A stretch of 64,000 bases of DNA from Desulfobacteraceae bacterium UBA2174 (GTDB lineage Bacteria > Desulfobacterota > Desulfobacteria > Desulfobacterales > UBA2174): positions 44,540 to 108,539 of the forward strand of contig DCWA01000022.1 of assembly GCA_002327445.1 (NCBI GenBank), in the 5' to 3' direction. Under the pieces are notes generated by a model. It ran no database searches and was not told the DNA's origin. It was given only the letters and a program-made list of their open reading frames with translations. Made by a program: the position numbers and the translations under genes. How positions within the stretch are numbered: the stretch's first letter is position 1; each line of letters starts with the position of its first letter. This document shows positions 16,127 through 48,771 of the stretch, one piece after another.

Positions 16127-16151
16127 GGAACCCCGCGGGATTTCGGGTTTG

Positions 16152-16182
16152 CAGCGGCCGGGAACGCGCTTCCCGGCCGCTG
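16152..16182 (+). terminator. GC-rich hairpin after the acyl-CoA dehydrogenase gene
   Basis: CAGCGGCCGGGA / TCCCGGCCGCTG gives a perfect 12-bp stem. No clear T-tract follows, so its terminator function is uncertain. Confidence 0.4.
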
Positions 16183-16316
16183 TCCGGCGCGGGCAGATTC
16201 CCCTTGACCGACTTTTCTCAAACCGGTATTGAACGAAGCTTCATCGCTTCATTTCCGCGCTTTTCGATTCGACGCAGCAGGAGCGCCTTCAAGCAAAACG
16301 GCAACGAGGTACCGTG

Positions 16317-18395
16317 ATGGAAACTGTCCTGATTTCGCCCGCCAAGGCATGGTTTTTCTTTATTCCGACCTGGATTTTCAGTTTTTTGATTCCGGTGGCC
16401 GGCGTGGCGGTATTCACCTATCTGATCGCCCTGCGCCTGGCTCCCCTGGTGCGGGCGGCGCCGGATCGGCGTTTCAACCGGATTCCGGAGCGCTTGAGGC
16501 AGGTGCTCAAGATCTGGCTCGGCCAGTGGCGGCATCCGCGTTACATGCTCGCCGGGGTCTTGCACATCATCCTCTTCGCCGGTTTTCTCAGCCTGTCCAT
16601 CCGATCCTCGCAGATGGTAATTCTCGGGATGGTGGACGGCTTCGTCTTCCCCGGATTCGACTCCTTCATCGGCGCGGCCTACGATATTCTGCGGCAGATC
16701 ATGGCCACGGCGGTGTTTGTCGTCGTGGTGGTTGCCGCGATCCGCCGGGGGATCTTCAAGCCGGCCCGCTACGCCGTGCCGGCGCAGTACGGCAAGGATC
16801 ACACCGTCGAGGCGGTTTTCGTGCTGGCACTGATCGGCACCTTGATGGTCACCGAGGCCCTTTTCGACAGCTCGCTGGCCGCCGCGGCCCATCAAAAGGG
16901 GATGCACGCGGAAATCCTCGTGCCCATGAGCCTGGCCTGGATCTTCGCCCGGATGCTGGCCGCCACTCCGGCGGAGAGCCTTCAAACCCTTCATCTGGTT
17001 TCCTACTATCTACACGATCTGACCTTCTTCTTTTTCCTGTGCTTCCTGCCGCTCGGCAAGCATTTCCATGTCATCACCTCGATTTTCAACGTTTTCTTCA
17101 TGCGCCTGGACAAGGGCAACGTCAAACCGGTGCGCCACGGGGTGGCCGACGACAAGCTCGACGATCTGGAGTCTTTCGGGGTCAAGCAGATCGACGATTT
17201 CACCTGGAAGCACATGCTCGATTTCTACAGCTGCGCCGACTGCGGCCGCTGCTCGGACAACTGCCCGGCCAACGCCGCCGGCCGTCCCCTGTCGCCGCGT
17301 TTCATTACCATCAAGGCCCGGGACCAGATTTTCAAAAGCTATCCAGTCTATCCCATCGGCGCTCCCTTTACCAAGAGCCCCCCGCTGATCGGCGGGATTT
17401 ACAGCGAAGCGGAGATCTGGTCCTGCACCACCTGCGGGGCCTGCGAAGAGGAATGCCCCCTGGGCATCGAGTACATCGACAAGATCATCGACTTGCGCCG
17501 CGGCATGGTCGATGACGGCAATGTGCCCCAGAGTCTGCAAAAACCGCTCAGCGCCATCGAAAAACGGGGCAATCCCTGGGGCAAGATGGAAAAGAAGCGC
17601 GCCGACTGGGCCAAGAACAAGGAATTCGCCGCCGACTGCGAGGTGAAATTGGTGGAGGCCGGCGATACGGCTGAAACCCTTTACTTCGTCGACAGCATCA
17701 CCTCCTACGACGACCGCATGCAGAAGATCGCCCAGGCCACTGCCCGGGTGTTGACGACCGCCGGAATCGACTTCGCCATCCTCGGCAAGGAGGAAAAGGA
17801 CAGCGGCCACGAAGTGCGGCGCTTCGGCGAAGAGATGCTGTTTCAAGACCTGCGGAGCCACAACACCGAGATGATCCAGGAGTCGGGGGCCAAACGCATC
17901 GTCACCGCCGACCCCCATGCATTCAACGCCCTGCGCAAGGACTACAAGGACATCCCGCCGACAGAGCACATCAGCCAGACCATCCTGCGCAGCATCCAGG
18001 AGGGGCGCCTGCGCCTGAAACCCGTCGACTCCGAGGGCAAGATCTACACCTACCACGATCCCTGCTACCTCGGCCGGCACAACGGCCTCTATGAGGAGCC
18101 GCGGCAGGTCCTGGATACCATTTCCGGGCTCCGCCGGGTGGAGATGACCCGTAGCCGGGATCGCAGCTTCTGCTGCGGCGGCGGCGGGCTGATGCTCTTC
18201 TACGAGCCCGAGGAGGAGCAGCGTATGGGTGTGATCCGGGTGAAGATGGCCGCCGATGCCGGCGCCAACGTCATCGTGACCGCCTGTCCGTTCTGCCTGG
18301 TGAACATCGAGGATGCCATCAAGGTCGCCGGTCTGGAAGGGAAAATGGAAGCCATCGACCTGGTGGAATTGATCGATCAACACGCCGAGCGGTAG
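16317..18395 (+). CDS. Membrane-anchored Fe-S oxidoreductase (HdrD/DsrK-like, CCG domains), ETF:quinone-oxidoreductase type
   Basis: N-terminal hydrophobic helices, two ferredoxin-type motifs (CADCGRCSDNCP, CTTCGACEEECP) and C-terminal CCG-type motifs (SFCCGGGG, CPFC). Sits between the acyl-CoA dehydrogenase and etfBA. Confidence 0.75.
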   Translation: METVLISPAKAWFFFIPTWIFSFLIPVAGVAVFTYLIALRLAPLVRAAPDRRFNRIPERLRQVLKIWLGQWRHPRYMLAGVLHIILFAGFLSLSIRSSQMVILGMVDGFVFPGFDSFIGAAYDILRQIMATAVFVVVVVAAIRRGIFKPARYAVPAQYGKDHTVEAVFVLALIGTLMVTEALFDSSLAAAAHQKGMHAEILVPMSLAWIFARMLAATPAESLQTLHLVSYYLHDLTFFFFLCFLPLGKHFHVITSIFNVFFMRLDKGNVKPVRHGVADDKLDDLESFGVKQIDDFTWKHMLDFYSCADCGRCSDNCPANAAGRPLSPRFITIKARDQIFKSYPVYPIGAPFTKSPPLIGGIYSEAEIWSCTTCGACEEECPLGIEYIDKIIDLRRGMVDDGNVPQSLQKPLSAIEKRGNPWGKMEKKRADWAKNKEFAADCEVKLVEAGDTAETLYFVDSITSYDDRMQKIAQATARVLTTAGIDFAILGKEEKDSGHEVRRFGEEMLFQDLRSHNTEMIQESGAKRIVTADPHAFNALRKDYKDIPPTEHISQTILRSIQEGRLRLKPVDSEGKIYTYHDPCYLGRHNGLYEEPRQVLDTISGLRRVEMTRSRDRSFCCGGGGLMLFYEPEEEQRMGVIRVKMAADAGANVIVTACPFCLVNIEDAIKVAGLEGKMEAIDLVELIDQHAER

Positions 18396-18401
18396 GCGGC
18401 G

Positions 18402-18487
18402 AGTGACTGGAAAAGTGACTAAAGTGACTAAAGTGACTAAAGTGACGAGTGCCTAAAGTGGCAAGTGACTAAAGTGCCTAAAGTTGA
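18402..18487. repeat. Tandem array of about 10 units related to AAAGTGACT (mostly 9-bp period)
   Basis: AGTGAC/AGTGCC/AGTGGC cores at 18402, 18414, 18423, 18432, 18441, 18448, 18457, 18464, 18473 and 18482. Confidence 0.9.
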
Positions 18488-18569
18488 TGAGTCGCTGCGC
18501 TCCGGCAATTTTTAAAACAAATGACAAAACGGAATCTTGCAGAGAACCGATACCCCAGACAGCAAATAG

Positions 18570-18597
18570 CCGATAACTGATAACCGATAACCGCCAA
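18570..18597. repeat. 4 x 7-bp tandem repeat CYGATAA/CCGCCAA
   Basis: CCGATAA CTGATAA CCGATAA CCGCCAA, read directly upstream of etfB. Confidence 0.85.
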
Positions 18598-18641
18598 CTT
18601 TTAACCGGGAGCAGAAAAACCCAACTCGCGGGAGGACAATC

Positions 18642-19424
18642 ATGGAGATTCTGGTTTGTATCAAGCGGGTGCCCGACACCTCGGAAAACGAGATCGCCCT
18701 CAACAGTGCGGGCAACGACATCGAACGGGACGATCTGGTCTATTCGGTCAATGAATGGGACAATTACGCCGTGGAAGAGGCCATTCAGATCGTGGACCGG
18801 GTCGGTGGCAGCGTGACGGTGGTCACGGTGGGCGACGACGAGTCCGAGGAGGTGCTGCGGCGGGAGATGGCCATGGGCGCCAACAAGGGCCTGCTGCTGG
18901 CCGATGACGCCTTCGCCGAGACCGACGGACGCGGCATCGCCACGATTCTCAAGGCCGCGGTGGCCAAGGGCACCTATGACCTGATTCTCACCGGCGCCCT
19001 CGCAGACGACGGCGCCGGGCAGGTGGGCGGCATGCTGGCCGCGATGCTCGACTACCCCTTTGCTTCGGTGGTGAACAAGATCGAAACCGTCAACGACAAG
19101 ACGCTGAAGATCGGCCGCGAGATCGAGGGCGGCAACCAGGAGATCAGCGAGATTTCGCTGCCCTGCGTGCTGTCGATCCAGACCGGCATCAACGAGCCGC
19201 GCTATGTCGGCATCCGTGGCATCCGCAAGGTGGCCTCGGTGGAGATCCCCACCCTGGCGGCGGGCGACCTCGGACTGGACGCCGCGGCCCTGGCACCGAA
19301 GGTCAAGCGCCTGGATTACTTTGTGCCCGCGCTGGGCAAGGGCGCCGAGATGCTGGAAGGCTCCACCGAAGAGATCATCGCCAAACTGCTCGAAATGCTC
19401 AAGGCCAAAGGAGGGCTGAAGTAA
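18642..19424 (+). CDS. etfB: Electron transfer flavoprotein beta subunit
   Basis: MEILVCIKRVPDTSE...NEWDNYAVEEA is the classic EtfB N-terminus. Confidence 0.93.
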   Translation: MEILVCIKRVPDTSENEIALNSAGNDIERDDLVYSVNEWDNYAVEEAIQIVDRVGGSVTVVTVGDDESEEVLRREMAMGANKGLLLADDAFAETDGRGIATILKAAVAKGTYDLILTGALADDGAGQVGGMLAAMLDYPFASVVNKIETVNDKTLKIGREIEGGNQEISEISLPCVLSIQTGINEPRYVGIRGIRKVASVEIPTLAAGDLGLDAAALAPKVKRLDYFVPALGKGAEMLEGSTEEIIAKLLEMLKAKGGLK

Positions 19425-20392
19425 TGGCACAGATCTTCGCATACATCGTTCACAAGAACGGCGTGGCCGACGATACGGCCCTGGAACTGCTCACCGCCGC
19501 CAAAAAGATCGATCCGGCGGCCTCCGTGACGGCCATCGTGACCGGTGAGGGTAGCGCGCTGGATGCCGTGGCCGGCCAGGTCGCCAAGGCCTACAACGAG
19601 GTGTGGAAATTTTCGGCTCCGGTGTTCGCCTATCCCAACGCGGAGGCGGTTCGCCCGCTGCTGGTCAAGGTGTTGCCGGCCGGTGCGATCCTGCTCGTGG
19701 CCCACGACACCTTCGGCATGGACCTGGCGCCGGGGCTTTCCATCAAGTTGAATGCGGCCCTGGTGACGGACGTGGTCGGCATTGAAGGCCTTGATGGAAG
19801 CACGCTGAAGCTGGTGCGCCAGGAATTCGGCGGGCAGGTGAGCACCCATGTGGCCGCCGACGTTTCCACCGGTGCCGTGCTGACTCCCCGGGCGGGTTCC
19901 TTCACCGCCGCCGAAGCGGCCGCCTCCGGCCCAGTGGTCGACAAGTCGGCCGAGGCGGGGGATCTGGTTGTCAAGCGGCGTTTCATCGAAGTGGTGGCCG
20001 CCGAGGTGGGTGATGTGGACATCACCAAGGAAGACGTGCTCGTGTCCATCGGTCGCGGCATCGAGGAGCAGGACAACATCGAGATCGCCCAGGATCTGGC
20101 CAAGGCCATGGGCGCGGTGGTTTCCTGCTCGCGGCCCATCGTGGATGCCAAGTGGCTGGAGAAATCGCGCCAGGTCGGCACCTCGGGCCAGACCGTCAAA
20201 CCGAAGGTCTATCTTGCCTGCGGCATCAGCGGATCGTTCCAGCATCTGGGCGGGCTCAAGGGCAACCCCTTCATCGTGGCCATCAACAAGAACGCCAAGG
20301 CCCCCATCTTTCAGGTGGCCGATGTGGGCATCGTGGCCAACATTCTCGAGTTCATGCCGGCATTGACCGAGGCGATCGAGGAAGGCAAATAG
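19424..20392 (+). CDS. etfA: Electron transfer flavoprotein alpha subunit
   Basis: 322 aa. The C-terminal FAD motif is PKVYLACGISGSFQHLGG...IVAINKN. Its start overlaps the etfB stop (TAATG). Confidence 0.93.
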   Translation: MAQIFAYIVHKNGVADDTALELLTAAKKIDPAASVTAIVTGEGSALDAVAGQVAKAYNEVWKFSAPVFAYPNAEAVRPLLVKVLPAGAILLVAHDTFGMDLAPGLSIKLNAALVTDVVGIEGLDGSTLKLVRQEFGGQVSTHVAADVSTGAVLTPRAGSFTAAEAAASGPVVDKSAEAGDLVVKRRFIEVVAAEVGDVDITKEDVLVSIGRGIEEQDNIEIAQDLAKAMGAVVSCSRPIVDAKWLEKSRQVGTSGQTVKPKVYLACGISGSFQHLGGLKGNPFIVAINKNAKAPIFQVADVGIVANILEFMPALTEAIEEGK

Positions 20393-26269: not shown

Positions 26270-26740
26270 TCAGTTGTCCAGCAGCTCCAGGTCGAACTGG
26301 GCCCGGATCTTGAAGACCCGGGTGGCCGGCAGGTTGTGGATCTCGGCGATTCCGGTTTCACGGCGGATGGCTTCCAGATGGGCTTCGATCTCGTTCATTG
26401 ATGGCGCGATGAAGGTGAACCAGACGTTGACGCGGTGGTCCCTCAGGTAGTTGTGGGTGACGCCCCCGTACCGGTTCACCACTGAGGCGAAGGTATCGAG
26501 GCGGTCCGGTGGCACCTCGGCGGCGCAAAGGGTGGAGACGAAGCCGACCTTGTCCGGCACGAAATTGGCGCCGATGCGTCGGATGACGTCGTCCCGCTTC
26601 AGCCGCTCCACCCGGGCGATCACCTCGCTCTCGGAGATGCCCAGCGCTTCGCCGATGGCGGCAAACGGGCGTTCGACCAGCGGAAAATCCGACTGGATGC
26701 GGTTGAGCAAGGCCCGGTCGATGTCGTCGATATCAGCCAT
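26270..26740 (-). CDS. Lrp/AsnC-fold siroheme decarboxylase subunit-like protein (AhbA/AhbB, NirD/L/G/H family)
   Basis: DRALLNRIQSDFPLVERPFAAIGEALGISESEVIARVERLKRDDVIRRIGANF is the pattern of AhbA/B-type proteins. Only one copy is present here. Confidence 0.6.
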   Translation of the reverse strand: MADIDDIDRALLNRIQSDFPLVERPFAAIGEALGISESEVIARVERLKRDDVIRRIGANFVPDKVGFVSTLCAAEVPPDRLDTFASVVNRYGGVTHNYLRDHRVNVWFTFIAPSMNEIEAHLEAIRRETGIAEIHNLPATRVFKIRAQFDLELLDN

Positions 26741-27429: not shown

Positions 27430-27747
27430 TCAGACGCACCCGGTCGGTTTTGGCAATCCCGCCATCTTGCAGGCTCCCTTTCCCGGTCCCGAGGGGAACA
27501 ATTCATAGATGTGCTTCAACTTGAAACCGGTGACCTTGGAAAGGACCCGAACCATGGGGGCGATACCGTTTTTCTCGTAGTACTCGCGAAGGGTCTTGAT
27601 CACCAGGCGATGCTCTTCGTTCAACTCGTCAATGCCTTCTTCCTTTTTGACGTACTGAACCCATTCCTCGGACCAGTTGGCGTAATCGTCAATGAATCCG
27701 TCTTCATCGACAGTAAAAGTCTTTCCGGAGAATTCCACTTGCGGCAT
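27430..27747 (-). CDS. dsrC: DsrC (TusE/DsrC/DsvC family) with both C-terminal-arm cysteines
   Basis: 105 aa ending ...PSGPGKGACKMAGLPKPTGCV. The penultimate Cys plus a Cys 10 residues upstream marks bona fide DsrC. Confidence 0.92.
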   Translation of the reverse strand: MPQVEFSGKTFTVDEDGFIDDYANWSEEWVQYVKKEEGIDELNEEHRLVIKTLREYYEKNGIAPMVRVLSKVTGFKLKHIYELFPSGPGKGACKMAGLPKPTGCV

Positions 27748-27914: not shown

Positions 27915-28757
27915 TCAATACTCCTTCGGCATTCCGTTGAGCTGCGCCAGGGTGAATACCGGGCCGTCCTTGCAGACGAAAAACTGGCCCACGTTGCAGT
28001 GGCTGCACATTCCAATGCCGCATTTCATCCGGTTTTCCAGACTCATGATGATGTTGTCATGGCCATAGCCACGGGCATCGAGCACCGGCTGGGTGAACTT
28101 GATCATGATCGGCGGACCGCAGATGATGGCATAGGTGTCCGCATCGGCTTCGGGCGCTTTCTGGTCCGTTATGGTGGGCACGAATCCCACGTTGTATTTC
28201 CAGTTGGGGTCGTTGGTGCCGTCCACGGTGATGTGCATGTGGATGTCGTCACGCGCCTCCCAGGCGGCCAGTTCGTCGCGGTAGAGCAACATGCCCGGGG
28301 TGCGGGCGCCGTAGATCACGTGAATCTGGCCGAAGCGCTGGCGGTTGGCCAGCATGTAGATGATGGAGGAGCGCAGCGTGGTGAAGGCGAAACCGCCGCC
28401 GATGATCACCACGTTCTTGCCCTCCAGGCGCTCCCAGGGGTACCAGTTTCCCAGGGGGCCGCGGATGCCCATCACGTCGCCGACCTTCATGTTGTGCAAG
28501 GCGGTGCTCACCACGCCGACCTTGTTGACGGTAAACTTCACGAAGCCCTTTTCGGTGGGCGAAGAGGCGATGCCGATGGGAATCTCCCCCTTGCCTGCGA
28601 TGGACAACTCGGCGAACTGTCCGGGATGATAGGCGAATTTTTCCTCATCGCCGGGGTTGAGGAAAGTGAATTTGAAGGTTTTTAAATTCTTGTCCTCGGT
28701 CTCGACGGTGATCTCGTCGATGCGAACCGGGTAGGGTAGATACGGATTTGGTTGCAC
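27915..28757 (-). CDS. flxA: FlxA-like FAD/NAD(P)H-binding oxidoreductase with [2Fe-2S] tail (AsrB / sulfhydrogenase-gamma family)
   Basis: 280 aa with a ferredoxin-reductase-type fold (RGPLG, VIIGGGFAFT) and C-terminal CGIGMCSHCNVG. Confidence 0.7.
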   Translation of the reverse strand: MQPNPYLPYPVRIDEITVETEDKNLKTFKFTFLNPGDEEKFAYHPGQFAELSIAGKGEIPIGIASSPTEKGFVKFTVNKVGVVSTALHNMKVGDVMGIRGPLGNWYPWERLEGKNVVIIGGGFAFTTLRSSIIYMLANRQRFGQIHVIYGARTPGMLLYRDELAAWEARDDIHMHITVDGTNDPNWKYNVGFVPTITDQKAPEADADTYAIICGPPIMIKFTQPVLDARGYGHDNIIMSLENRMKCGIGMCSHCNVGQFFVCKDGPVFTLAQLNGMPKEY

Positions 28758-28770: not shown

Positions 28771-29835
28771 TCAAGCGACCTTGCAGGCGGCGTCTTGGCC
28801 GAAACGGTTCATCAATTGGCAAACCTTGCGGATGTCGATATTGACCGGGCAATACTGGATGCAGCGGCCGCAGCCGACGCACTGGATCCCGTCGCCGTAC
28901 TTGTCGACGTAGTACTTGAGTTTGTGCATGAAACGCTGGCGTACCCGCTGCACCTTCTGCCCCCGGGGGTTGTGACCGGAGCCGTGGAGGGTGAAGAGCG
29001 GGAACATGCAGCTGTCCCAGTTGCGCTCGCGGATGCCGTGCTTGCCGCGCACCTCGTCCTGAATGTCGAAACACCAGCAGGTGGGGCACAGGTAGGTGCA
29101 AGTGCCGCAGTTGATGCAAGAGAAGGCGATATCTTCCCAGAAATTTGCATCGTAGAGCGCCATTTGGGGAATCTCGGCCAGCCGGTCGGTTTCGACGGTG
29201 GAGGTGATTTTGGCTTCAGCGGCTTCCTTGCCCGCGGAAAAACAGCCCTCGCTGTCCGCCGGGGCTTCCGTGAACCAGCCGGCGGCGGCCAGGAATGCGG
29301 CGCCCTTGTCGGTGAGAATCTTGGCCAGATAGGCGTCACCGGCGTCCTGGAGCAGCACGTCGAGGCCCTGTTCACTGTAAGGCCCGCAGCCGGCACTGGT
29401 GCAAAAACAGGTGCTGCCCGGATGATCGCAGGCCAGGCCGATGAAGGTGGTGGCCTCGTAGTTGCGCAGCCAGTAGACGTCCTTGACATCCGGGGCGTCG
29501 AAGTTGCGGCGCACCAGCAGAAAGCTGTAGGCGTCGCAGGGCCGGATCCCCACCGCGGCGGCGGGCTTGGCCGGCGCCGGGGCTTCCTTGAGGACGTTGC
29601 CATCCGGATCATTGGGGTCCACGGTGTATTCGAAGAGGATTTCACTCTGGGGATAGACCACCGAACGGGCCGACATGCGGGTGTTGAGGCCGTCGAGGTC
29701 CGGCGCTTGTCCCGGCGCCAGAGCCGCGAAGTTGAGCATCGCGCCTTCCCTGACCGGTCCGAAGAGCCGGTAGGCCTTTTCGGCCGCTGCCAATCCCTGG
29801 GCCCATTGTGCCTTGTCGATGCGAATGTACTTCAT
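28771..29835 (-). CDS. flxB: FlxB-like iron-sulfur protein (AsrA / sulfhydrogenase-beta family)
   Basis: 354 aa with CINCGTCTYLCPTCWCF and CVGCGRCIQYCP clusters and an AsrA-like N-terminal region. Confidence 0.65.
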   Translation of the reverse strand: MKYIRIDKAQWAQGLAAAEKAYRLFGPVREGAMLNFAALAPGQAPDLDGLNTRMSARSVVYPQSEILFEYTVDPNDPDGNVLKEAPAPAKPAAAVGIRPCDAYSFLLVRRNFDAPDVKDVYWLRNYEATTFIGLACDHPGSTCFCTSAGCGPYSEQGLDVLLQDAGDAYLAKILTDKGAAFLAAAGWFTEAPADSEGCFSAGKEAAEAKITSTVETDRLAEIPQMALYDANFWEDIAFSCINCGTCTYLCPTCWCFDIQDEVRGKHGIRERNWDSCMFPLFTLHGSGHNPRGQKVQRVRQRFMHKLKYYVDKYGDGIQCVGCGRCIQYCPVNIDIRKVCQLMNRFGQDAACKVA

Positions 29836-29868: not shown

Positions 29869-30816
29869 TTACTTCATGAAATCCTGCGGGTCGTCGGGCC
29901 GGTAAGTGTCGAGCGGCGGACGCTGATCCAGCGACAGCCCCGCTTCCCAGCCCCACTGTTCGAAGGCTTCCTTTTCAAGTTTCTTGGTGAACACGCGCAT
30001 GTTGATGCCCATGGGACATGCCCGCTCGCAGGAGCCGCAGTCGGTGCAGCGGCCGGCGCAGTGGTAGGCCCTGAGAAAATGAAAGGTGCGCACATCCACC
30101 GGGTTCTGGCTCTTGCCGACCCACTGGGGCGTGCTCTCGTCGACGAAGCAGGTCGGACAGTAGCACAGCGGGCAGGCATTGCGGCAGGCGTAGCAGCGGA
30201 TACAAGGGGCCAGCAGGTTTTCGAAGTACGTCCACTTCTCCTCGGCGCTCATGGCCTCGATGGCACGCACGTCTTCATAGCGGTCCACGTTCTGCTGCTC
30301 CGGGACCGGATCGGCCACCAGTTCGTCATAGATCACCGGGTTGCGGTGGATGCAGACGGCGCAGTTGGCCTGGAGCATGTCCTTGCGCGGGTAGGTCTTC
30401 TCGAAGCCCGCGCCGCATACCCGGACGGACTCTCCGTCTTCCACCACCCGGGTGACTTCCCCCGGCGCCATGGCCTTGATGCGCCGCTTGTCGAGCATCC
30501 CCTTGCAGGGGACGCCGATGATGACGAGCTGCTCGCGTTTGATCTTGTTTTCGATGATATGGGTAACGATGTTGCGACTGTCACACCCCTTGGCGACCAC
30601 GGCGATCTTGTCGGTCCGGTTGGTGAGGTAGTTGGCCAGGTTGATGCCGCAGTTGCCATCCCAAATGAGGTGATCGACGTCGTCGACGTTCTTGATGAAG
30701 CAAGGCTCGTTCATCATCGGCATCGACCCGTTGCGAAACCCGATGACCGTTTCGACCCGGCAGTCCTTGAGCAGGCGCCTGGCGATGTCACGAATCTTGT
30801 CGGTATAAGCGATCAT
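29869..30816 (-). CDS. flxC: FlxC-like iron-sulfur protein
   Basis: 315 aa with CIRCYACRNACPLCYCPTCF and CTDCGSCERACP motifs. Its ATG lies 1 nt after the flxD stop. Confidence 0.6.
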   Translation of the reverse strand: MIAYTDKIRDIARRLLKDCRVETVIGFRNGSMPMMNEPCFIKNVDDVDHLIWDGNCGINLANYLTNRTDKIAVVAKGCDSRNIVTHIIENKIKREQLVIIGVPCKGMLDKRRIKAMAPGEVTRVVEDGESVRVCGAGFEKTYPRKDMLQANCAVCIHRNPVIYDELVADPVPEQQNVDRYEDVRAIEAMSAEEKWTYFENLLAPCIRCYACRNACPLCYCPTCFVDESTPQWVGKSQNPVDVRTFHFLRAYHCAGRCTDCGSCERACPMGINMRVFTKKLEKEAFEQWGWEAGLSLDQRPPLDTYRPDDPQDFMK

Positions 30817-30817
30817 G

Positions 30818-31249
30818 TCAGGCCACCTTCAGCTCTTTTTTCACGAATTTCTGGTTGGGGCCAACGGCCCGGACAGCCTCGGTCACCTTTTTGACGACAT
30901 CGACGAACTTGGTCGATTCGGCCGATGAGATCCAGGAAAAATGGACGCGGCCCGGTTCAACACCCATGTGCTCCAGCAGACTCTGCAGGAGGGCGAACTT
31001 GCGACGAGCGTAGTAATTACCTTCCAGGTAATGGCATTCGCCGGGATGTCACCCGGACACCCAAACCCCGTCGGCCCCTTCCCGCAGGGCGCCCAGGACG
31101 AATTTGGGGCTCATGCGCCCGGTGCAGGGAATCCGGATGACCCGGATGTTGGGCGGGTACTCCATCCGGCTGACCCCCGCAAGGTCGGCGGCGCCGTAGC
31201 TGCACCAGTTGCAGAGAAATGCGACAATTTTTGGTTCCCACTGAGACAT
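30818..31249 (-). CDS. flxD: MvhD/FlxD-like [2Fe-2S] protein, selenocysteine-containing (in-frame TGA at 31049-31051)
   Basis: The track ORF stops at ...GADGVWVSG. The same frame continues [43 protein letters not shown]... to the stop at 30818. The TGA replaces the Cys of the MvhD G-C-H-x-G-(D/E)-C-H-Y motif. AGGAG precedes ATG 31249. Confidence 0.8.
31016..31032 (-). other. SECIS-like hairpin 16 nt downstream of the flxD UGA
   Basis: RNA AUUACCU-GGA-AGGUAAU gives 7 complementary pairs (or 6 bp with a 5-nt loop), read directly. Confidence 0.45.
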
Positions 31250-31289
31250 TTCGAAATCTCCTTGAAGTTGCCGTTATAAAAACCGTTGC

Positions 31290-34200
31290 TCAGCTCGCCT
31301 CGTTGAGGGCGAACAGCTGGGCGAAGATCTGGTCCGTGTCGAATCCCTTGAGGCGGATCGCACCGCTGCGGCAAGAGGCCACGCAGAGCCCGCATCCCTT
31401 GCACAGCACCGGGTTGATCTCGGCCCGGCCCGGCCAGAAACGCTCAGTGGCCGCCCGGAACGAGGGCGCCGAGTACGGGCAGATCGACACGCACACCCCG
31501 CACATGCTGCAGAGGGCCGGGTTGACCTCGGCCACTTGGCCGATGGTGCTGATGTGCTGTCGCGCCAGGAGGGTGACGGCCCGGCTGGCGGCCGCCTTGC
31601 CCTGGCTGACGGCTTCGTCGATGGGCTTGGGGTAATGGGCCATGCCACAGAGGAAAACGCCGTCGGTGGCGAAATCGCAAGGCCCCAGCTTGGCGTGCTT
31701 CTCCACGAAAAAGCCGTCGTCGTTGAGCGGCAGCTTGAAAAACTGGGCCAGCGCGTTGTTGTCCGGCGCCAGAATGGCCGTTGCCAGCGAGATGAGGTCG
31801 GTGTCGATCTCCACCGGCCGTCCGAGGATCGGATCGGTGAGGCGCACCGTGAGGCGGCCGTTTTCAATGGATACCTTCGGTTTGGCCTCCAGACTGTAGC
31901 GGATGAAGATGACCCCTTTCTCCCGGGCCTCTTTGTACAGGTACTCGCGCTCGCCGTAGGTCCGGATGTCGCGGTAGAGGATGTAGACGTTGGCCTCGGG
32001 GTTGCGGGCCTTGATCGCCAGGGCGCTGTCGATGGAATGGGTGCAGCAGACCCGGCTGCAGTAGGGCCGCTCCGGTTCCCGGCTGCCGACGCACTGGATG
32101 AACACCGCCGCACCGAGTTCCTCAATGGCCGGGTCATCCGCCTTGAGCTTGGCATCCAGTTCCAGGCTGGTGACGATCCGTGAATCCTGCCCGTAGCTGT
32201 ACTCGGTGGGTACCAGGGGCACGGCGCCGGTGGCGATGATGGCCACCCCGTGTTCGATTACCTGCTCCTGAGCGCCGTTTTTCACCGTGGTCTTGAAGTT
32301 GCCCACGAATCCTTCGACGGCGCTGATCTCGCTGTTGAGGTGGGTCTGGATGTTGGGATCTCCGCTGACGTCGGCCACCAGTTGGTCGAGCCTGGCGGCG
32401 ACCGGGGCGCCGTCCGGGGTCTGGAAGAGGTGGCGGGCCTGGCCGCCGAGCAGGGCTTCGCGTTCCACCAGGTGGGTGGTATAGCCCTGGGCGCCCAGCG
32501 CCCGGGCCGCCGCCATGCCGGCGATGCCGCCGCCGATCACCAAGGCGGCCTGGTTGACGTCGAGCTGGGCCTCCTTGAGCGGCTGCATCAGGCCGACCTT
32601 GGCCACGGCCATGCGCACCAGATCCTTGGCCTTTTGGGTCGCCAGGTCGGGATTGTGCTTGTGGACCCACGAATCCTGGTTGCGGATGTTGCACATTTCG
32701 AAGAGGTACTTGTTCAACCCCGCCGCCATGAGGGTTTCCTGGAACAGGGCCTCGTGGGTCTTGGGGGTGCAGGCGGCCACCACCACCCGGTTGAGCTGCT
32801 TCTCCTTGATCACCTCCGCCATGCGGTCCTGGGTGTCCTGGGAGCAGGTGTAGAGGTTGTCGGTGGCGTATTCCACGTAGGGCAGGGTGGCGGCGTAGTC
32901 CCGCACCGATGGCACGTTAACCGTGCCGGAGATGTTGATGCCGCAGTTGCACACGAAGACCCCGATACGCGGCCGTTCGTTGAAGACGTTGACCTCGGGC
33001 ACCTTTTCGGGCACCACGGTGAGCGTGTCGCGGGCCGCGGCGAGGATCTCGCCGGCAGCGGCCGCCGCCGCACTGGCGTCCACCACGGACTGGGGGATGT
33101 CCCGCGGGCCCTGGAAGGCGCCGCAGACGAAAATCCCCGGCCGGCTGGTGGCCATGGGGGCAAACGGCGCGCTCTGGGCGAAGTGGCCCGGGGTGAGTTC
33201 GATGTCGAGGCGCTTGGCCAGTTCGACGGTCTCGGCGGCGGTCTGCAGGCCCACCGAGAGCACGATCATGTCGAAGGTCTCGGTTTTCAGCTCACCGGAT
33301 TCGGTGACGTAGCGGACCGCCAGGTCACCGGTGTCGCCGACCTTGTCGATGGTATGGACCCGGCTGCGGATAAAGCGCACCCCCTGGTCCTTGGCCTTGT
33401 TGTAGAAACGCTCGAAGTCCTTGCCGTGGGTGCGCATGTCCATGAAGAAGATGGCGCAGTCCAGGTCATCTCCGGCGTGCTCCTTGGCGATGACGGCTTC
33501 CTTGACGGCGTACATGCAGCACACCGACGAGCAGAAGCTGTTGTCGCAGCGGTTGAGATCGCGGGATCCAACGCACTGGAACCAGGCAATCTTCTTGGGT
33601 TCCTTGTGGTCGCCCAGGCGCACCAGGTGGCCGCCGGTGGGGCCGGAGGCCGACAGGAGGCGCTCCATTTCCATGGAGGTGATCACGTTGGGGAGTTTGG
33701 CGTAGGCGTAACTGTCGAATCTGGACGGGTCGAACGGCTCGAAGCCCGGCGCCAGGATCACGGCGCCCGTCTCCAGGGTGATCGTTTCCGGCTTCTGGCC
33801 GTGGGTTTCCAGGGTCACGGCGCCGGCCTTGCAGGCCGCCACGCACTGGTAGCACTCGCAGCACACCCCGCACTCCAGGCAGCGATGCGCCTCGGCCCGG
33901 GCCGTATTCTCGTCGTAGCCCCGCTGGACCTCGTTGAAGTTGGTCTTGCGCACTTCGGGCGCCAGCAGCGACATCGGATTCCGGGCGACGTGGGGCAGTC
34001 CATCGAGGGGCACGTCCTGGACCGGGGTCCAGTCGGTTCTGCGGCCGGCAAACAGGTCCTCGCCGCGGATGAAGCGGTCGATGGAAACGGCCGCTTCCTT
34101 GCCCGCGCCGATGGCCTCCACCACCGTGGCCGGACCGGTGACGGCGTCCCCGCCGGCAAAGATGTCCGGATCGCTGGTCTGCAGGGTGACCTTGTCCACC

Positions 34201-35741
34201 CGCATCGTGCCCCAGTCGTTCAGCGTGCAGGCGCACTCGTCGGTGAGGCAGGCCCAATCGGTTTCCTGGCCGATGGCCGGAATGATCGCGTCCACCTCGA
34301 TCTGAAACTCGGAACCCTTGATGGGCACCGGGCGCTGACGGCCGCTCTTGTCCGGGGGACCCAGTTCCATCTTGATGCACTCGATGGCCTTGACCACCCC
34401 GTTTTCGGCGATGACCCGGGTCGGATTGGTCAGGGTCATCAGCTCGATGCCTTCCTCGCGGCACTCCTCGATTTCCTCGGCATTGGCCGGCATCTGTTCC
34501 ACGGCCCGGCGGTAGATGATGAACGGCTTCTTGGATCCGGTGCGCAGGGCCGAGCGGACGCAGTCCATGGCCACGTTGCCGCCGCCGACCACCGCCACCC
34601 GGTCGCCCAGGTGAACGCGGTTGCCCAGGTTGATCTCGCGCAGGAATTCGACCCCGGGGTAGACGCCCTTGTAATCCTCCCCCTCGATGCCCAGGCGCTT
34701 GCACTCCTGGGCGCCGATGCCGATGAAAAACGCCTTGTAGCCCTGCTCGCGCAACTGACCGACGGTGAAATCCTTGCCGATTTCAACACCGGTCTTGAAC
34801 TCGACGCCCAGGTCCTTGATGACCTGGATCTCGGCCTCGGTGACATCCCGGGGCAGGCGGTAGGAGGGAATGCCCACGGTGAGCATGCCGCCAAGCACCG
34901 GCAGCTTTTCAAAGACCGTGACCTGATAGCCTTCGATGGCCAGGAAGTAGGCGCAGGTCAAACCGGCCGGGCCGGCGCCGACGATGGCGATTTTTTCCTC
35001 GCGCCGGGGCTTCTTGACCGGAACGTAGGGGTTGCCGCTGGCCCGGTCCGTGTCGGCCAGGAAGCGGTGGAGGTACATGATCCCCAGAGGGGAGTCCACC
35101 GCGTTGCGGGTGCAGGCGCTCTCGCACGGATGGGTGCAGACCCGTCCGCAAACCCCGGGAAAGGGGTGGTCCTGCTTGAAGAGTTCCAGGGCTTCGCGGT
35201 AACGACCGTCGTTGGTCAGGGCGATGAATCCCTGGACGCTGACATGCGCCGGGCAGGTGGCCCGGCAGGGGGCCGTGCCGCGTTTGGTGATGGCGAAGGC
35301 CCCGGGGATGGCCTGGGCGTAGCGACGGTGGGTCGCCTTGCGTTCGACCAGGCCCATGTCGTATTCGCTGGGCCGCCGGATGGGGCAGACTTCGGCGCAA
35401 TCGCCGCAGCCGGTGCACTTGGCGGGATCGATGAACCGGGGCTGCTTGTGGATCTGGACCTTGAAATGGCCCGCTTCGCCTTCGATGGATTCGACTTGGG
35501 AACAGGTGATCAGTTCGATATTGTTATGCCGGCCGACCTCGACCAGTACAGGGGAGATGATTCACATCGCGCAGTCGTTGGTCGGGAAGGTCTTGTCCAA
35601 CTGGGCCATGACGCCGCCGATGCTGCTCGATTTGTCGAGCAGATAGACGTAGTAGCCCGAGTTGGCCAGATCAAGGGCCGACTGCATCCCGGCGATGCCG
35701 CCGCCGACGACGAGAACCGAACCGATGACATCCTTGGACAT
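31290..35741 (-). CDS. hdrL: Giant HdrA-like flavoprotein (HdrL type) with inserted GltD/NfnB-like NAD(P)H module, selenocysteine-containing (TGA at 35562-35564)
   Basis: ATG 35741 follows AAGGAG. The N-terminus reads [64 protein letters not shown]... and is in frame with track ORF 31290..35357. The TGA replaces the second Cys of the HdrA FPTxDCxxC motif. Total 1483 codons. Confidence 0.85.
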
Positions 35742-36022
35742 GGGAGCACTCCTTAGCGATGAAATGCACGTTGCAGTTTTGTTGAAACATGGCGCCCGGC
35801 TGCGGACCGGGGACGCGAGAACGAAAGACCTACCTAACGGTTGGCGAAAAACTTGTCAATGAAATTCGGCTCTTCGAAAAGCGGGTCATCGGAGGGGGTT
35901 GCAGCGGGGCCGAAGCAAATTTAATATATAATTATAACATTAAGTTATATTGTCAACAAGAGAAAGCCGCCGCCCGCTTGCCACCCCGTTGGGGAAACGG
36001 TTAGGATGACCGGGCGTCGAGG

Positions 36023-40620: not shown

Positions 40621-41995
40621 ATGAAAGCCGCGCTGAAAGTGTTCGGATGGGTGTTGGCGGCCGTTTTCATCGTTGGCATCGGCGGGGGATCGGCGGAAAC
40701 CCTGCAGGATGCCATCGACCATGTGCTCAAGACAAACCCGGAAATTCGGGCGGACGCCTACAATCGGCTCGCCCGGGATCAGGAGGTGAAGAAGGCCGAA
40801 TCCGGCTTCTACCCCAAGGTGGACGTCACCAGCGGATTCGGGGTCACTGAACAGCGAAGTCCTTTTGAGGAGACCTTTTATCCGCGCTCGTCGGTCGTGG
40901 GCCTGCGGCAGAACGTCTGCAGCTTCGGCGTGACGACCAACGAGGTGCTGCGGCAGAAGGCCCGCGTCAAGTCCCGAGCCTACCTGATTCAGGCCAATTC
41001 GGAGCAGCTCTCCCTGCGCACCGCCAGAGCGTATCTCAATGTTCTGCGGGCGGAAGAACTTCATGGCCTGGCCAAGGAGAACCTACTCAATCATCAGCGC
41101 ATCTACGATCAGATGAAGCTGCGCAGCGAGTCCGGTGTGGAGCGCAGAGCCGACCTCGATCAGGTGATGGGACGGTTGGCCCTGGCGCAGTCCAACCTGG
41201 TGGTCACCCAGGCCAACCTCGAGGATGCCCGCACCGACTATCTCACCGTGGTTGGCACGGCCCCCGAGGCACTGCTCAAGCCGGACCCGATGGACGCCAA
41301 TTTCCCCAAGGACTTTCCCCAAGGACATGGATGAGGCCGTTTCCTTCGCCATGGAGAACTATCCGCTGGTCAAGTCCGCCAAGGCGGATCTGGAGGCCCG
41401 GGAGTTCCAGTACAAGACGGCCAAGAGCGACGCCTACCCCAAACTGGACGTGACGGCGGACTACCGCTGGGAAAATGACGTCGACCAGGAAGGCTACGCC
41501 GAAGAGTTTACCGCCGCGGCCCCCGTACGGTTCAATATTTTCAACGGCGGCTACGACCGGGCGCGGATCGCGGAGACCCTGCAGCAAATCAAGGAAGCCA
41601 AGGAAATCTACAACAGCACCGAGCGGCAAACGCGCCAGGCGATCCGCCTGTCCCGGGAAGCGTACAAAGCGGCCATCGACCGGACCGCCCACCTCAGGCA
41701 GTATGTGGAAGCGGCGGCCGTTACCTCGGATGCCTTCACCAAGCAATGGATGGTGGGGCGGCGCACCATGTTCGACGTGCTCGACAGCCAGGCCGAATAC
41801 ATCAACGCCAAGGCCGACCTTGTGGGCGCCGTGTATGACAAGTCATACTCCGAATACCGGGTGCTCAGCGCCATGGGGAATTTGGTGCACAGCCTCGGTT
41901 TGCAGTGGCCAGGGGAAAGCAGGGTGGACGTCACCGAAGAAAAGGGAATCGACGTCACGGTTCCCCTTGATCTGACCTACCACACCGCCGAATAA
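40621..41995 (+). pseudogene. lapE: TolC-family type I secretion outer-membrane protein (LapE-like), frame broken by a 13-bp tandem duplication
   Basis: Track ORFs 40621..41334 and 41225..41995 are the two halves. Deleting one 13-bp copy joins ...DANFPKD|MDEAVSFAMENYPLVK into a single 453-codon TolC-like reading frame. Confidence 0.8.
41301..41326 (+). repeat. Exact tandem duplication 2 x TTTCCCCAAGGAC (13 bp)
   Basis: Counted base by base at 41301-41313 and 41314-41326. It creates a stop at 41332-41334. Confidence 0.95.
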
Positions 41996-42047
41996 TCGCC
42001 CATTGGCGCAACGGCGCGTTCCCTTCAAAGTTAGACCGGCGGAGACC

Positions 42048-42779
42048 ATGAAACCGCCTGCAACCGGGGTCCGAACCATCGACGACCGCATCGGTCAAGG
42101 GGGATCCGGGTGCCTGATACGCCGGCGCCCGGCTCCTCTTGTCCTCATCCTCCTGATCTGCCTGGCTTTCGTCGGGCCTGTCGGGACCAGGGAAGCGTTT
42201 CTTCTCAGCCGGGAAGTTCTCAGGATGGCCGAGGTCAAATACGGTTCCGATGCCACCGAGCGTTTCGAGCGGTGGGAGAACCTCATCCGTGATGACGACA
42301 GCGCCCCCGAAAATGAAAAACTGAACCGGGTCAACGCGTTCTTCAACGAAACGGTGCGGTTTGTCGACGATGCCGATCTGTACGGGGTGGGAGATTACTG
42401 GGCCACCCCATTAGAGCTACTGGCCCGGCAGGCAGGGGATTGCGAGGATTTCGCCATCGCCAAGTTTTTCACCCTCAAGGCGCTGGGCGTGGCGGAAAAC
42501 AAACTCAACATCGCCTATGTGAAGGCATTGCGCTTCAACATGATGCACATGGTGGTGACCTACTACAGCCATCCAGGCGCCGAACCGCTGGTCCTCGACA
42601 ACCTCGTGGACGAGATCCACCCCTCCTCCCGGCGTTCCGACCTGATGCCGATCTTCAGCTTCAATGGCACCGGGCTGTGGCTGGCCAAGGAGCGGGGCAA
42701 AGGCAAAAATACCGGCAGCAGCCGCCGCCTGAAGGCCTGGGCGGATTTGCTGCAACGGATGGCGGACAACCCCCTGTAG
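42048..42779 (+). CDS. lapG: LapG-type periplasmic transglutaminase-like cysteine protease (BTLCP)
   Basis: YWATPLELLARQAGDCEDFAIAKFFTLKALGV...MHMVVTYY...VLDNL matches the LapG Cys-His-Asp core. An N-terminal signal-like segment is present; start uncertain. Confidence 0.85.
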   Translation: MKPPATGVRTIDDRIGQGGSGCLIRRRPAPLVLILLICLAFVGPVGTREAFLLSREVLRMAEVKYGSDATERFERWENLIRDDDSAPENEKLNRVNAFFNETVRFVDDADLYGVGDYWATPLELLARQAGDCEDFAIAKFFTLKALGVAENKLNIAYVKALRFNMMHMVVTYYSHPGAEPLVLDNLVDEIHPSSRRSDLMPIFSFNGTGLWLAKERGKGKNTGSSRRLKAWADLLQRMADNPL

Positions 42780-42795
42780 GCGGAGGGAAAGGCTG

Positions 42796-44766
42796 ATGAC
42801 ACTTTACCGCCAGCTTGTCGCTTTCACCCTTGTCCTTTTCCTGGTGCTTTTCACCGGCACCTGGATTGCCAGGCTGCAAACCACGCGCGCCTTTCTCGGC
42901 GCCCAGCTCGAATCCCACGCCCAGGATACGGCGACTTTTCTCGGCTTGTCCATCTCCCAGCAGATCCAGGATCTGAAAAAGGACCTCCCCGTCGCGGAAA
43001 CCATGATCGGCGCGGTTTTCGACCGCGGTTACTACCGGGTGGTCAAACTGGTGGACATCCGGCAGCGGGTCCTCGTGGAACGGGAGCTGGAGGTCAAGAT
43101 CGAGAACGTGCCGGATTGGTTCATCCGGATGTTCCCCCTGGAAACCCCCGAGGCTGGAGCCAATGTCATGGCCGGCTGGATGCAGGCCGGCACCCTGCTG
43201 GTGAAAAGCCACCCGGGCTTCGCCTACCGCACCCTCTGGCAGGATGCGCTGCGCATGGCCTGGTGGTTTGCCGCCTGCGGCGCATTCGTGCTCATTTTCG
43301 GGGCGGTCGGGCTTCGCCTGCTCCTGCGCCCCCTGGTGCGGGTCGAGCAGCAGGCTGAAGCGCTATGCCGCAAGGAGTATCGGCTTCAGGAACGCATTCC
43401 CCGGACCAAGGAGCTGCGTCGGGTGGTGGAAGTGATGAACCGCATGACGCGCAAGGTCAAGGAGATGTTCCAGGAGCAGGCCGCCCTGGCCGAAGAGATC
43501 CGCAAGGAATCCTACAGCGATGCCGTCACCGGCCTGGGAAACCGGCGCTACTTCGCCGGCCAGGTCGAAGCCCAGCTCCAAGGGCGGGTGAGCGATGCCA
43601 GGGGCGTTCTCCTGTTGGTGCAGATCCGCAATCTGGAGATGGTGAACCGGGAAATGGGAATGGCGGCCGGAGATGCGCTGCTCCAAAGAGCGGCCACCAT
43701 GATCCGTGAAGCCGCCGAGGCCCATGGACAGGCGGTGCTGGCGCGCCTGACCGGCGCCGATTTCGGGCTGTATCTGCCCGATACCCCGGGCTGGGTCGCG
43801 GAAACCCTGTCCAGCGGCATCACCGACCGGCTAAGCGGCCTCTTTACCGAGGGGGTTGCCCCGGAGGGGGATGTCGGACGCGTGGGCGCCGCCACCCATG
43901 AAACGACAGTAAGCCTGGGACGCCTGCTGTCGGAGGCGGACCTGGCCTTGAGAACCGCGGCCCGCTCCGGTCCCAATGCCTGGCATGCGCGTGCCGTTGC
44001 CAGGGAAAACGCCGGCACTCCCCAAGGTGAGCAGCAGTGGAAACTCGCCCTCGAACAGGCGCTGGAAGCGAACCGGATCCGGCTTTTTGCCCAGACGGTA
44101 GCATCCACCAAGGACCGGCAGCAGAAGCTCCACCTGGAACTGTTCTCGAGGATCGTCCAGGAAGACGGCGCCTTGATCAACGCCGGGATTTTCCTCCCCT
44201 TCGCCGAGCATCTCGATCTGGTGGCAAAACTCGACCGTCAGGTGCTGGAACTGGTCGGACGCCTGGATGCCGCACGCCTGGGCGTGACGTGGGTGGCGGT
44301 GAACCTGTCTCCGTCATCGCTGCGCGACGAAGGTTTCCACCAGTGGGTGGGGTCCTTTCTGGACCAGCTGCCGAAGGCATGCCCGCGCATCATTTTCGAG
44401 TTCCCGGAATTCGGCGCGGTCCGGCATCTCGATCTCGTCCAGGAATTCCGGGGGCGCGCCGAGAGCCGGGGGCATGCCATCGGTTTGGACCACTATGGCC
44501 GGGGTTTTTCAAACCTCGGCTACTTGCAGGCTCTGCGCCCCGAGTATGTCAAGATCGACCGGGCCTATACCGCCGAACTCAAGGACGAGCGGGGCGACAG
44601 CCGGTTTTTCATCAGTTCTCTCAGCGGCGTGGCCCACAGCATCGACATCGCGGTGATCGCCGAGGGAGTGGAGACGGAAGGGCAACTGGAGATTCTTGAA
44701 GGGCTTCCCGTCGACGGGATCCAGGGCTACCTGATTGACACGCCCAAGCCCCTGGAAGAGGCGTAG
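42796..44766 (+). CDS. lapD: LapD-type inner-membrane c-di-GMP receptor (LapD/MoxY N-domain, HAMP, degenerate GGDEF and EAL)
   Basis: N-terminal TM, a periplasmic domain with AGWMQAG...HPGFAYRTLW, then TM and HAMP. The GGDEF position reads GADFG and the EAL position reads ELF, both degenerate as in LapD. Confidence 0.85.
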   Translation: MTLYRQLVAFTLVLFLVLFTGTWIARLQTTRAFLGAQLESHAQDTATFLGLSISQQIQDLKKDLPVAETMIGAVFDRGYYRVVKLVDIRQRVLVERELEVKIENVPDWFIRMFPLETPEAGANVMAGWMQAGTLLVKSHPGFAYRTLWQDALRMAWWFAACGAFVLIFGAVGLRLLLRPLVRVEQQAEALCRKEYRLQERIPRTKELRRVVEVMNRMTRKVKEMFQEQAALAEEIRKESYSDAVTGLGNRRYFAGQVEAQLQGRVSDARGVLLLVQIRNLEMVNREMGMAAGDALLQRAATMIREAAEAHGQAVLARLTGADFGLYLPDTPGWVAETLSSGITDRLSGLFTEGVAPEGDVGRVGAATHETTVSLGRLLSEADLALRTAARSGPNAWHARAVARENAGTPQGEQQWKLALEQALEANRIRLFAQTVASTKDRQQKLHLELFSRIVQEDGALINAGIFLPFAEHLDLVAKLDRQVLELVGRLDAARLGVTWVAVNLSPSSLRDEGFHQWVGSFLDQLPKACPRIIFEFPEFGAVRHLDLVQEFRGRAESRGHAIGLDHYGRGFSNLGYLQALRPEYVKIDRAYTAELKDERGDSRFFISSLSGVAHSIDIAVIAEGVETEGQLEILEGLPVDGIQGYLIDTPKPLEEA

Positions 44767-44779
44767 AGACAACTTCGGG

Positions 44780-45115
44780 TCAAAGAATTTCGTCCACCAT
44801 CAGGCCGGGGTCGACCATTTTTGCACGGATTCTTTGACGAGCGGTGATTTTTTTCTGGACCTGCTCCGGCAGGTCGGTGAAGCGGATGACTTTCTTGTCG
44901 ATCAATACGTCGATCAGGTCCTCGATGGCCCGCACCAGGCCGGCGTCGGTCAGCGTCAGCAGGGACCGCACATCGGCCGGGTCCTGGACGGAGTCGAGAA
45001 ATTCGATCACCTCGTCGTCGATGCCGGGCTTGATCTCGGTGGCGGTGGCGGTTCTGTTTCTGGCGATCGCAACGATCCTGCCGTCCGGGTCGCGTTCGAC
45101 GTAAACCATGAACAT
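44780..45115 (-). CDS. Conserved-looking small hypothetical protein
   Basis: 111-aa ORF on the opposite strand between lapD and lapB, with normal-looking composition. The motif LVRAIEDLIDVLIDKKVIRFTDLPEQVQKKI reminds me of small proteins of unknown function; no function assigned. Confidence 0.5.
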   Translation of the reverse strand: MFMVYVERDPDGRIVAIARNRTATATEIKPGIDDEVIEFLDSVQDPADVRSLLTLTDAGLVRAIEDLIDVLIDKKVIRFTDLPEQVQKKITARQRIRAKMVDPGLMVDEIL

Positions 45116-45219
45116 TGTCTCCTGTGGGGATAGAGGTTGGCGTTTTTTAACACCATTTTTCTTTCTTTACCAATAGAAACGATCGACTTCAGAAGCGACG
45201 ACAGCCCAGATCGGATCAT

Positions 45220-48768: not shown

Positions 48769-48771
48769 TCG

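Follow-up and report, generated by a model that had tools for sequence, protein, structure and literature searches.

An in-frame UGA in an mvhD-type gene of Desulfobacteraceae bacterium UBA2174 is very probably decoded as selenocysteine

The mvhD gene and its internal UGA

The DNA considered here, called the window below, is a stretch of 64,000 nucleotides from Desulfobacteraceae bacterium UBA2174 (assembly GCA_002327445.1, contig DCWA01000022.1, positions 44,540 to 108,539 of the forward strand), and all positions given are those of this stretch. On its minus strand lies a gene of the mvhD/flxD type, which is interrupted by an in-frame UGA codon at 31051-31049 that is very probably decoded as selenocysteine (Sec). 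An earlier note, made from the sequence alone, had proposed this reading and had stated that the mechanical list of open reading frames (the ORF track) cuts the gene short. The two reading frames concerned are as follows.

30818..31249, minus strand: complete mvhD/flxD-type gene, translated as 143 residues with the putative Sec at residue 67
31049..31249, minus strand: shortened ORF of 66 codons, as given in the ORF track

The gene starts with the ATG at 31249, and an AGGAG ribosome-binding site is located nine bases 5' of this codon. Sixty-six codons lead to the sequence ...GADGVWVSG and then to the internal TGA, at which the listed ORF indeed stops, while the frame runs on for 76 sense codons to the C-terminus ...KELKVA and to a terminal stop, also TGA, at 30820-30818. 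The earlier note had counted 77 sense codons after the internal TGA, which is one too many; its total of 143 residues, with the recoded position included, agrees with the translation. The terminal stop was also said to abut the ATG of the next gene, and this ATG (30816-30814) begins one base past the stop. The listed ORF and the 76 sense codons beyond the TGA are one gene, which encodes a 143-residue electron-transfer protein of the MvhD/FlxD-type [2Fe-2S] family.

Family membership and the residue at the UGA position

The joined protein, with U replaced by C, was searched against the Pfam family FlpD (PF02662), and it matched the whole profile, positions 1-123 of 123 (E = 3e-54, 182.6 bits, with a cut-off of 22.3). 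The head alone matched positions 1-59 and the 76-residue tail alone matched positions 61-123 (E = 1e-18), both above the cut-off, so that family similarity extends into the downstream frame; the internal UGA corresponds to profile position 60, between the two matches. In an alignment with MvhD of Methanothermococcus thermolithotrophicus (PDB 5ODC chain D), residues 1-133 run through gap-free and the UGA falls on Cys67 of the crystallised protein, which sits in the motif G-C-H-x-G-D-C-H-Y. The family has a set of five cysteines (C13, C16, C42, C67 and C72 in MvhD numbering), of which C13, C16, C42 and C72 are kept, with U67 in the place of the fifth. Similarity of at least 50% to the crystallised MvhD suggests that the mvhD product binds one [2Fe-2S] cluster.

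In a comparison with the 120 best homologues in the protein database, the residue at the UGA column was Cys in 109, Trp in nine, Gly in one and Arg in one. The Trp entries are P0001, P0003, P0011, P0023, P0032, P0058, P0061, P0063 and P0098, and Gly and Arg are found in the full-length public protein entries P0002 and P0014, respectively. The single Trp homologue that was examined as DNA (P0001, identical to locus L083) has TGA at this codon; its Trp is therefore an artefact of gene calling, in which an alternative genetic code mistranslated Sec. Together with Cys67 of the crystallised protein, these data uphold the claim that the TGA lies at a column where the MvhD family carries Cys. The earlier note had named a gap or a residue other than Cys at this column, as well as a tail devoid of family similarity, among the outcomes that would speak against it, and all of its tests that were run were passed.

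Conservation of the UGA and selection downstream of it

One genome per prokaryotic species was scanned, which gave 510 relatives, and the best 80 of these were used for the analysis of conservation. They share 79-92% amino acid identity with the window's protein and are almost all metagenome-assembled genomes (MAGs) of Desulfobacterales/Desulfobacteraceae. We found TGA at codon 67 in 80 of the 80, with the frame intact beyond it. Differences from the window sequence, counted at the first, second and third codon positions, were distributed 931:375:2674 downstream of the TGA and 500:228:2357 upstream of it. Because third positions prevail among the differences downstream, the tail is translated in the mvhD frame, and the frame downstream of the TGA is under protein-level selection. 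A similar distribution was seen in codons 68-94, i.e., the 27 codons from the TGA to the first internal Met (310:102:804). The residue at position 71 differs between the two forms of the gene: Glu (GAA; codon 71 is at 31037-31039) is almost always present in TGA-bearing orthologues, within G-U-H-P-G-E-C, and Asp, within G-C-H-P-G-D-C, in each of the 23 Cys forms inspected for this motif. The difference may stem from a constraint on the RNA or on the protein.

A hairpin downstream of the UGA

31016..31032, minus strand: hairpin AUUACCU-GGA-AGGUAAU of the type of a bacterial Sec insertion sequence (SECIS), spanning codons 73-78 (CAT TAC CTG GAA GGT AAT)

A 7-bp hairpin with the arms AUUACCU and AGGUAAU, 16 nt past the UGA, had been pointed out in the earlier note and was confirmed here: the spacer measures exactly 16 nt (31048-31033) and is followed by the 5' arm (31032-31026), the loop GGA (31025-31023) and the 3' arm (31022-31016). 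In the published model of the bacterial SECIS (bSECIS; PMC13188914), the loop has 3-9 nt with a G in its first two positions, the stem has 4-16 bp, the distance from the UGA to the apical loop is 16-37 nt, and the minimum free energy (MFE) is at or below -7.5 kcal/mol. The mvhD hairpin has the loop GGA, a stem of 7 bp and a UGA-to-loop distance of 23 nt, and the UGA-proximal 40-48 nt have an MFE of -9.2 to -9.8 kcal/mol, all within the limits of that model. Its pair probabilities are 0.79-0.97, and it accounts for seven of the nine pairs predicted in the RNAalifold consensus, which has no other stem of substantial length.

A test of synonymous sites was performed with 81 sequences and the 89 degenerate codons that encode a conserved amino acid. 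Usage of one single codon throughout was found at only six of these 89, namely codons 73-78, which form the hairpin; the codons flanking it use two to six synonyms each. A or T is the third base in four of these six codons, in a genome whose likely genes mostly have a guanine-cytosine content at third codon positions (GC3) of about 0.8 or higher. As a control, we compared six orthologues of the Cys form at the DNA level, all of them coding for the peptide HYLEGN as well and several of them located in the same operon context, and five of the six carried synonymous changes inside the hairpin (TAT, GAG, GGA, GGG, CTT, CAC). The TGA forms, 82 of 82, are the same at the synonymous sites of the hairpin; a Glu-to-Asp change at codon 76 occurs in L069 alone. 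Since the hairpin is fixed in the TGA forms and variable in five of the six Cys forms, the constraint is tied to the UGA. These observations, together with the agreement with the published model, support the earlier suggestion that the hairpin lies in the right region for a bacterial SECIS.

A second in-frame UGA in the upstream hdrL gene

31290..35741, minus strand: HdrA/GltD fusion (HdrL-type), 1483 residues in the same frame across a TGA, with the putative Sec at residue 60
35562..35564, minus strand: second in-frame UGA (DCAM-U), which conservation and HdrA alignment place at the canonical CxxU Sec site of HdrA
35529..35546, minus strand: SECIS-type hairpin CUGGUCG-AGGU-CGGCCGG, beginning 15 nt past the hdrL UGA

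The gene upstream of mvhD, which ends 38 nt before the mvhD ATG, shows the same arrangement. It is split in the ORF track into an ORF of 59 codons (35562..35741) and one of 1355 codons (31290..35357), which are in the same frame with a single TGA between them; the joined product has the Pfam domains Pyr_redox_2, Fer4_20 and Fer4. The N-terminal 200 amino acids align to residues 145-297 of HdrA (5ODC_A) and place residue 60 on Cys197, in the C-x-x-C site, and this is the canonical position of Sec in archaeal HdrA, described as Sec197 in Methanococcus maripaludis (PMC13518236). TGA is present in 32 of the 32 fetched loci that include the site. The stem arms of the hairpin are identical in all 32, and one loop base differs in two of them; the hairpin has a loop containing GG, a UGA-to-loop spacing of 22 nt and an MFE of -9.1 kcal/mol alone or -10.8 kcal/mol in context. 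The pairing of an HdrA-type gene with mvhD was also found at L081, L085 and 32 genome loci. A systematic scan of the window for further coding frames interrupted by TGA yielded the hdrL site and no further candidate; its remaining hits were same-frame gene junctions or antisense frames and were discarded.

Weighing the explanations

We consider that the mvhD UGA is decoded as Sec, with a probability of about 93%. The reading put forward in the earlier note is supported by the invariant TGA, the Cys column, the selection acting downstream and the constrained hairpin. Mechanistically, the intragenic hairpin would act as a bacterial SECIS and would bring SelB, loaded with Sec-tRNA(Sec), to a ribosome that has halted at this codon, so that SelB binding and actual selenium insertion are predicted. 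Several observations weigh against this reading. In the 64-kb window, ARAGORN found tRNA-Met only and no tRNA-Sec, and none of the roughly 40 likely genes scanned with NCBIfam proved to be selA, selB or selD. The hairpin by itself has little thermodynamic stability (-4.5 to -5.1 kcal/mol), the 40-nt fold is no better than that of shuffled sequences (z = -1.28; 23 of 200 shuffles were equal or better), and another local fold gave a non-significant z of -0.03, so that energy alone gives no support for a SECIS. RNAalifold detected no covariation across the 81 sequences, six stem pairs being invariant and one being broken in one sequence, and no conserved lower stem below the hairpin; an Rfam scan of 30700-35900 (E up to 10) returned chance matches only and no SECIS family. 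One Cys form, L084 (1501-1938; TGC at codon 67), keeps the perfect AUUACCU-GGA-AGGUAAU hairpin, which may be a trace of a recent Sec-to-Cys conversion. Finally, the ligand role of residue 67, which is discussed below, comes by elimination from a literature statement and not from coordinates.

The lack of Sec machinery in the window is also what would be expected if the UGA were read through without Sec, either by a near-cognate tRNA(Trp) or tRNA(Cys) or as part of a genome-wide reassignment, with Trp, Cys or Gly at residue 67, and some database gene calls do give W or G for an orthologous TGA. We regard this as very unlikely. Reassignment throughout the genome was rejected, as TGA serves as an ordinary stop that ends mvhD itself, 15 of its orthologues and most of the high-GC3 ORFs that are likely genes of the window. 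The column holds Cys, and not Trp or Gly, in the 109 homologues mentioned above and in crystal structures, and the only W call that was checked derives from TGA-containing DNA. A conserved hairpin in accord with the SECIS model lies at the right distance, a second pair of UGA and hairpin occurs in hdrL, and related Desulfobacteraceae possess selABCD together with the same selenoproteins. The second Sec-type gene of the operon and the sel genes of these relatives also speak indirectly for a Sec machinery in this genome.

Two further explanations, both with a probability close to nil, deny that the two parts of the frame form one working protein. A nonsense mutation or an assembly error might have left a fragment of 66 residues, with the tail as a decaying remnant, a view with which the stop of the ORF track at the TGA and the failure of folding energy by itself to single out the hairpin would agree. 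The pseudogene was rejected: the identical TGA occurs in all 80 of the independent genomes (the best 80 of the 510 relatives), the tail has remained in frame with substitutions overwhelmingly at third positions, and it still matches the family profile when searched alone. MvhD might also be made as two polypeptides, the first consisting of the 66 residues before the TGA and the second begun anew at an internal start codon, and the ATG at 30967 does open a same-frame ORF of 49 amino acids (30818..30967). In such a model codons 68-94, which include the invariant Cys72, would be untranslated, yet they are under protein-level selection, and no start codon or ribosome-binding site follows upon the TGA; the split gene was rejected on these grounds. 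Decoding of the mvhD UGA as Sec is the reading adopted in what follows.

Operon context and likely function

Beyond mvhD, the operon continues on the minus strand with the following genes.

29869..30816, minus strand: 315-aa 4Fe-4S protein in FlxC-like position (Pfam Fer4_8, Fer4)
28771..29835, minus strand: 354-aa Fer4_22 iron-sulfur protein, AsrA/HydB-like and in FlxB-like position (Pfam Fer4_22, E = 2e-33)
27915..28757, minus strand: 280-aa oxidoreductase binding flavin adenine dinucleotide (FAD) and nicotinamide adenine dinucleotide, with or without phosphate (NAD(P)), in FlxA-like position (Pfam NAD_binding_1, FAD_binding_6, DHODB_Fe-S_bind)
27430..27747, minus strand: DsrC-family protein ending ...PKPTGCV (Pfam DsrC PF04358, E = 7e-36)

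In its domains, namely NAD_binding_1/FAD_binding_6/DHODB_Fe-S_bind, Fer4_22, Fer4_8 and FlpD, the cluster would fit a module of the FlxABCD type. The 354-aa protein also matched the NCBIfam models ShyB, HydB and AsrA, all below their cut-offs. A neighbour of the type of the 315-aa 4Fe-4S protein is present at the Cys-form loci L082, L084, L086 and L087 as well, and the whole order of mvhD, two iron-sulfur genes, flavoprotein gene and dsrC is repeated beside the Cys-form orthologue of L082. Within 27.4-35.8 kb, no HdrB/HdrC (CCG-domain) gene was found, the HdrA-type GltD fusion being the only Hdr component. Because hdrB and hdrC are not adjacent, the module is not filed as FlxABCD-HdrABC.

MvhD would serve as an adaptor for the upstream HdrA/GltD fusion HdrL, itself a predicted selenoprotein (U60), and the products of the neighbouring genes are its presumed physiological partners. 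Together, HdrL, MvhD and the three Flx-like iron-sulfur and flavin subunits would probably link NAD(P)H to the reduction of DsrC, on which the module is likely to act as its thiol/disulfide substrate. A homologue of the siroheme decarboxylase AhbA, an enzyme of the alternative haem biosynthesis, is encoded at 26270-26740 on the minus strand, a short way past dsrC. It is adjoined by a gene of the YjbQ family, and the pair is consistent with a genome of the sulfate-reducer type.

Residue 67 and the interface between MvhD and HdrA

A recent structure paper (PMC13580544, 2026) described Cys16 of MvhD as an additional, non-ligand Cys that lies between the cluster and the FAD, and reported that His68 and Asp71 of MvhD approach an unknown ligand held by a Cys pair of HdrA. 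Five cysteines are conserved and Cys16 is not a ligand, which leaves C13, C42, C67 and C72 to bind the [2Fe-2S] cluster. By this elimination, the Cys67 column is probably a cluster ligand. The expression "cluster-ligand Cys" used in the earlier note was therefore probably correct, and the ligand role finds indirect support in the same paper.

Sec67 thus stands in the place of the family's invariant Cys67, the probable ligand. Residue 71, which is Glu in the Sec forms and Asp in the Cys forms, is the position reported near the unknown ligand. The two Sec residues, U67 of MvhD and U60 of HdrL, may thus both be placed at the electron-transfer interface between MvhD and HdrA. A more specific picture, in which U67 is a selenolate cluster ligand beside His68 and Glu71 and U60 of HdrL belongs to the Cys pair that holds the unknown ligand, is tentative, and we think it rather less probable than its opposite.

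Comparison with known systems

MvhD/VhuD proteins with Sec form a recognised selenoprotein family (PMC13188914), and in Desulfobacterales the presence of Sec in mvhD and hdrL and the splitting of such genes in annotation have already been described; the locus offers no new biology beyond these. The earlier note had likewise called the case a correction of annotation within a known family, and Sec-containing mvhD genes are documented in Desulfobacterium autotrophicum (PMC2702500) and Desulfococcus multivorans (PMC5109826). Strittmatter et al. 2009 (PMC2702500) reported four Sec-containing mvhD genes (mvhD1, 2, 3 and 5), Sec-containing hdrL1 and hdrL3, and selABCD in D. autotrophicum HRM2. This organism, also of the Desulfobacterales, has mvhD right after hdrA/hdrL, as in the window, and both mvhD and the hdrL with GltD fusion are selenoprotein genes; the likeness concerns the presence of Sec in mvhD genes. 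In HRM2, dsr genes including dsrC come after the hdrL1-mvhD locus, whereas the window has three Flx-like iron-sulfur and flavin genes between mvhD and dsrC, and no dsrAB.

In Desulfococcus multivorans (PMC5109826), mvhD (dmul_C28840/50) and hdrA (dmul_C02770/80) are each split by UGA into two locus tags, a SECIS was noted downstream, and selA, selB and selD are present. The record of one selenoprotein gene as two pieces owing to an in-frame UGA is common to that genome and to the window. The neighbourhoods differ, being hdrA2-hdrBC-mvhD2 in one D. multivorans locus, and hdrA1-mvhD1 with a pyridine nucleotide-disulfide oxidoreductase in the other.

VhuD, subunit D of the F420-non-reducing hydrogenase of Methanococcales and Methanopyrus, also belongs to PF02662 and has HdrA as its partner, and it carries a CxxU motif (PMC13188914, PMC4989117). 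Its two Sec positions are 50 codons apart (PMC4989117), a spacing that agrees with columns 16 and 67 in the mvhD product. Unlike VhuD, the window's MvhD has Sec only at column 67 and Cys at 16. The archaeal SECIS is located in the 3' untranslated region and serves both UGAs, whereas the hairpin of the window is of the bacterial type and lies inside the ORF. In addition, the archaeal subunit sits on a [NiFeSe] hydrogenase, which is absent at the window locus. BamF of the class II benzoyl-CoA reductase of Geobacter metallireducens (bioRxiv 10.64898/2026.04.10.717634) is likewise a bacterial selenoprotein homologous to MvhD, described as a [2Fe-2S] adaptor to the HdrA-like Sec subunit BamE. Its Sec19 corresponds to the non-ligand Cys16 column, in contrast to Sec at the Cys67 column in the window, and BamF is longer by more than 100 residues.

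FlxD of Desulfovibrio vulgaris is a Cys protein. The FlxABCD-HdrABC system of this organism (Ramos et al. 2015, cited in PMC5947623) resembles the window in combining an MvhD-like protein, an FAD/NAD(P) subunit and two iron-sulfur subunits beside an HdrA-type gene, and DsrC has been proposed as its acceptor. The window differs in having the reversed order hdrL-D-C-B-A-dsrC, no adjacent hdrB/hdrC, and a large GltD fusion as the HdrA partner. The module of the window resembles the Flx/Hdr modules of sulfate reducers, for which a transfer of electrons from NADH to DsrC has been proposed (PMC5947623; PMC2702500).

Other features of the window

Elsewhere in the window, a Lap-type biofilm adhesin system extends over 42003-51653 and also has a LuxR-type regulator. 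Its main components are listed below.

42003-42779: LapG protease
42796-44766: c-di-GMP (cyclic diguanosine monophosphate) receptor LapD
45220-47148: type I secretion ABC (ATP-binding cassette) transporter
47335-48768: HlyD adaptor
49464-51653, minus strand: LapA/Bap-like adhesin fragment with retention module; GC3 unusually low, 0.59

Two overlapping ORFs on the plus strand in different frames, 40621-41334 and 41225-41995, match the first half (positions 2-210) and the second half (positions 208-403), respectively, of a profile for TolC-family outer-membrane proteins, which points to a TolC gene with a frameshift or a sequencing error, or to a TolC pseudogene. A further cluster on the plus strand, at 13496-20392, appears to serve electron transfer in fatty-acid or acyl-CoA oxidation and contains genes for a FadR-like TetR regulator, a 606-aa acyl-CoA dehydrogenase, a 693-aa HdrD/TfrB-like iron-sulfur oxidoreductase, EtfB and EtfA.

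Implications

The results call for two corrections of annotation: mvhD should be recorded as one selenoprotein of 143 residues, and not as 66 codons, and hdrL as one selenoprotein of 1483 residues. Without both, only fragments are left, and metabolic reconstructions miss the electron-transfer module of HdrL and MvhD beside DsrC. In protein databases, such genes are found either cut short or with Trp or Gly wrongly given for Sec, and hence the Sec forms of the family are under-counted. For the organism itself, the result marks a user of selenium. If a Se-Se or Se-S relay did operate at this locus, the bacterial, NADH-linked module of HdrL, MvhD, Flx-like subunits and DsrC would be a tractable system in which to test it.

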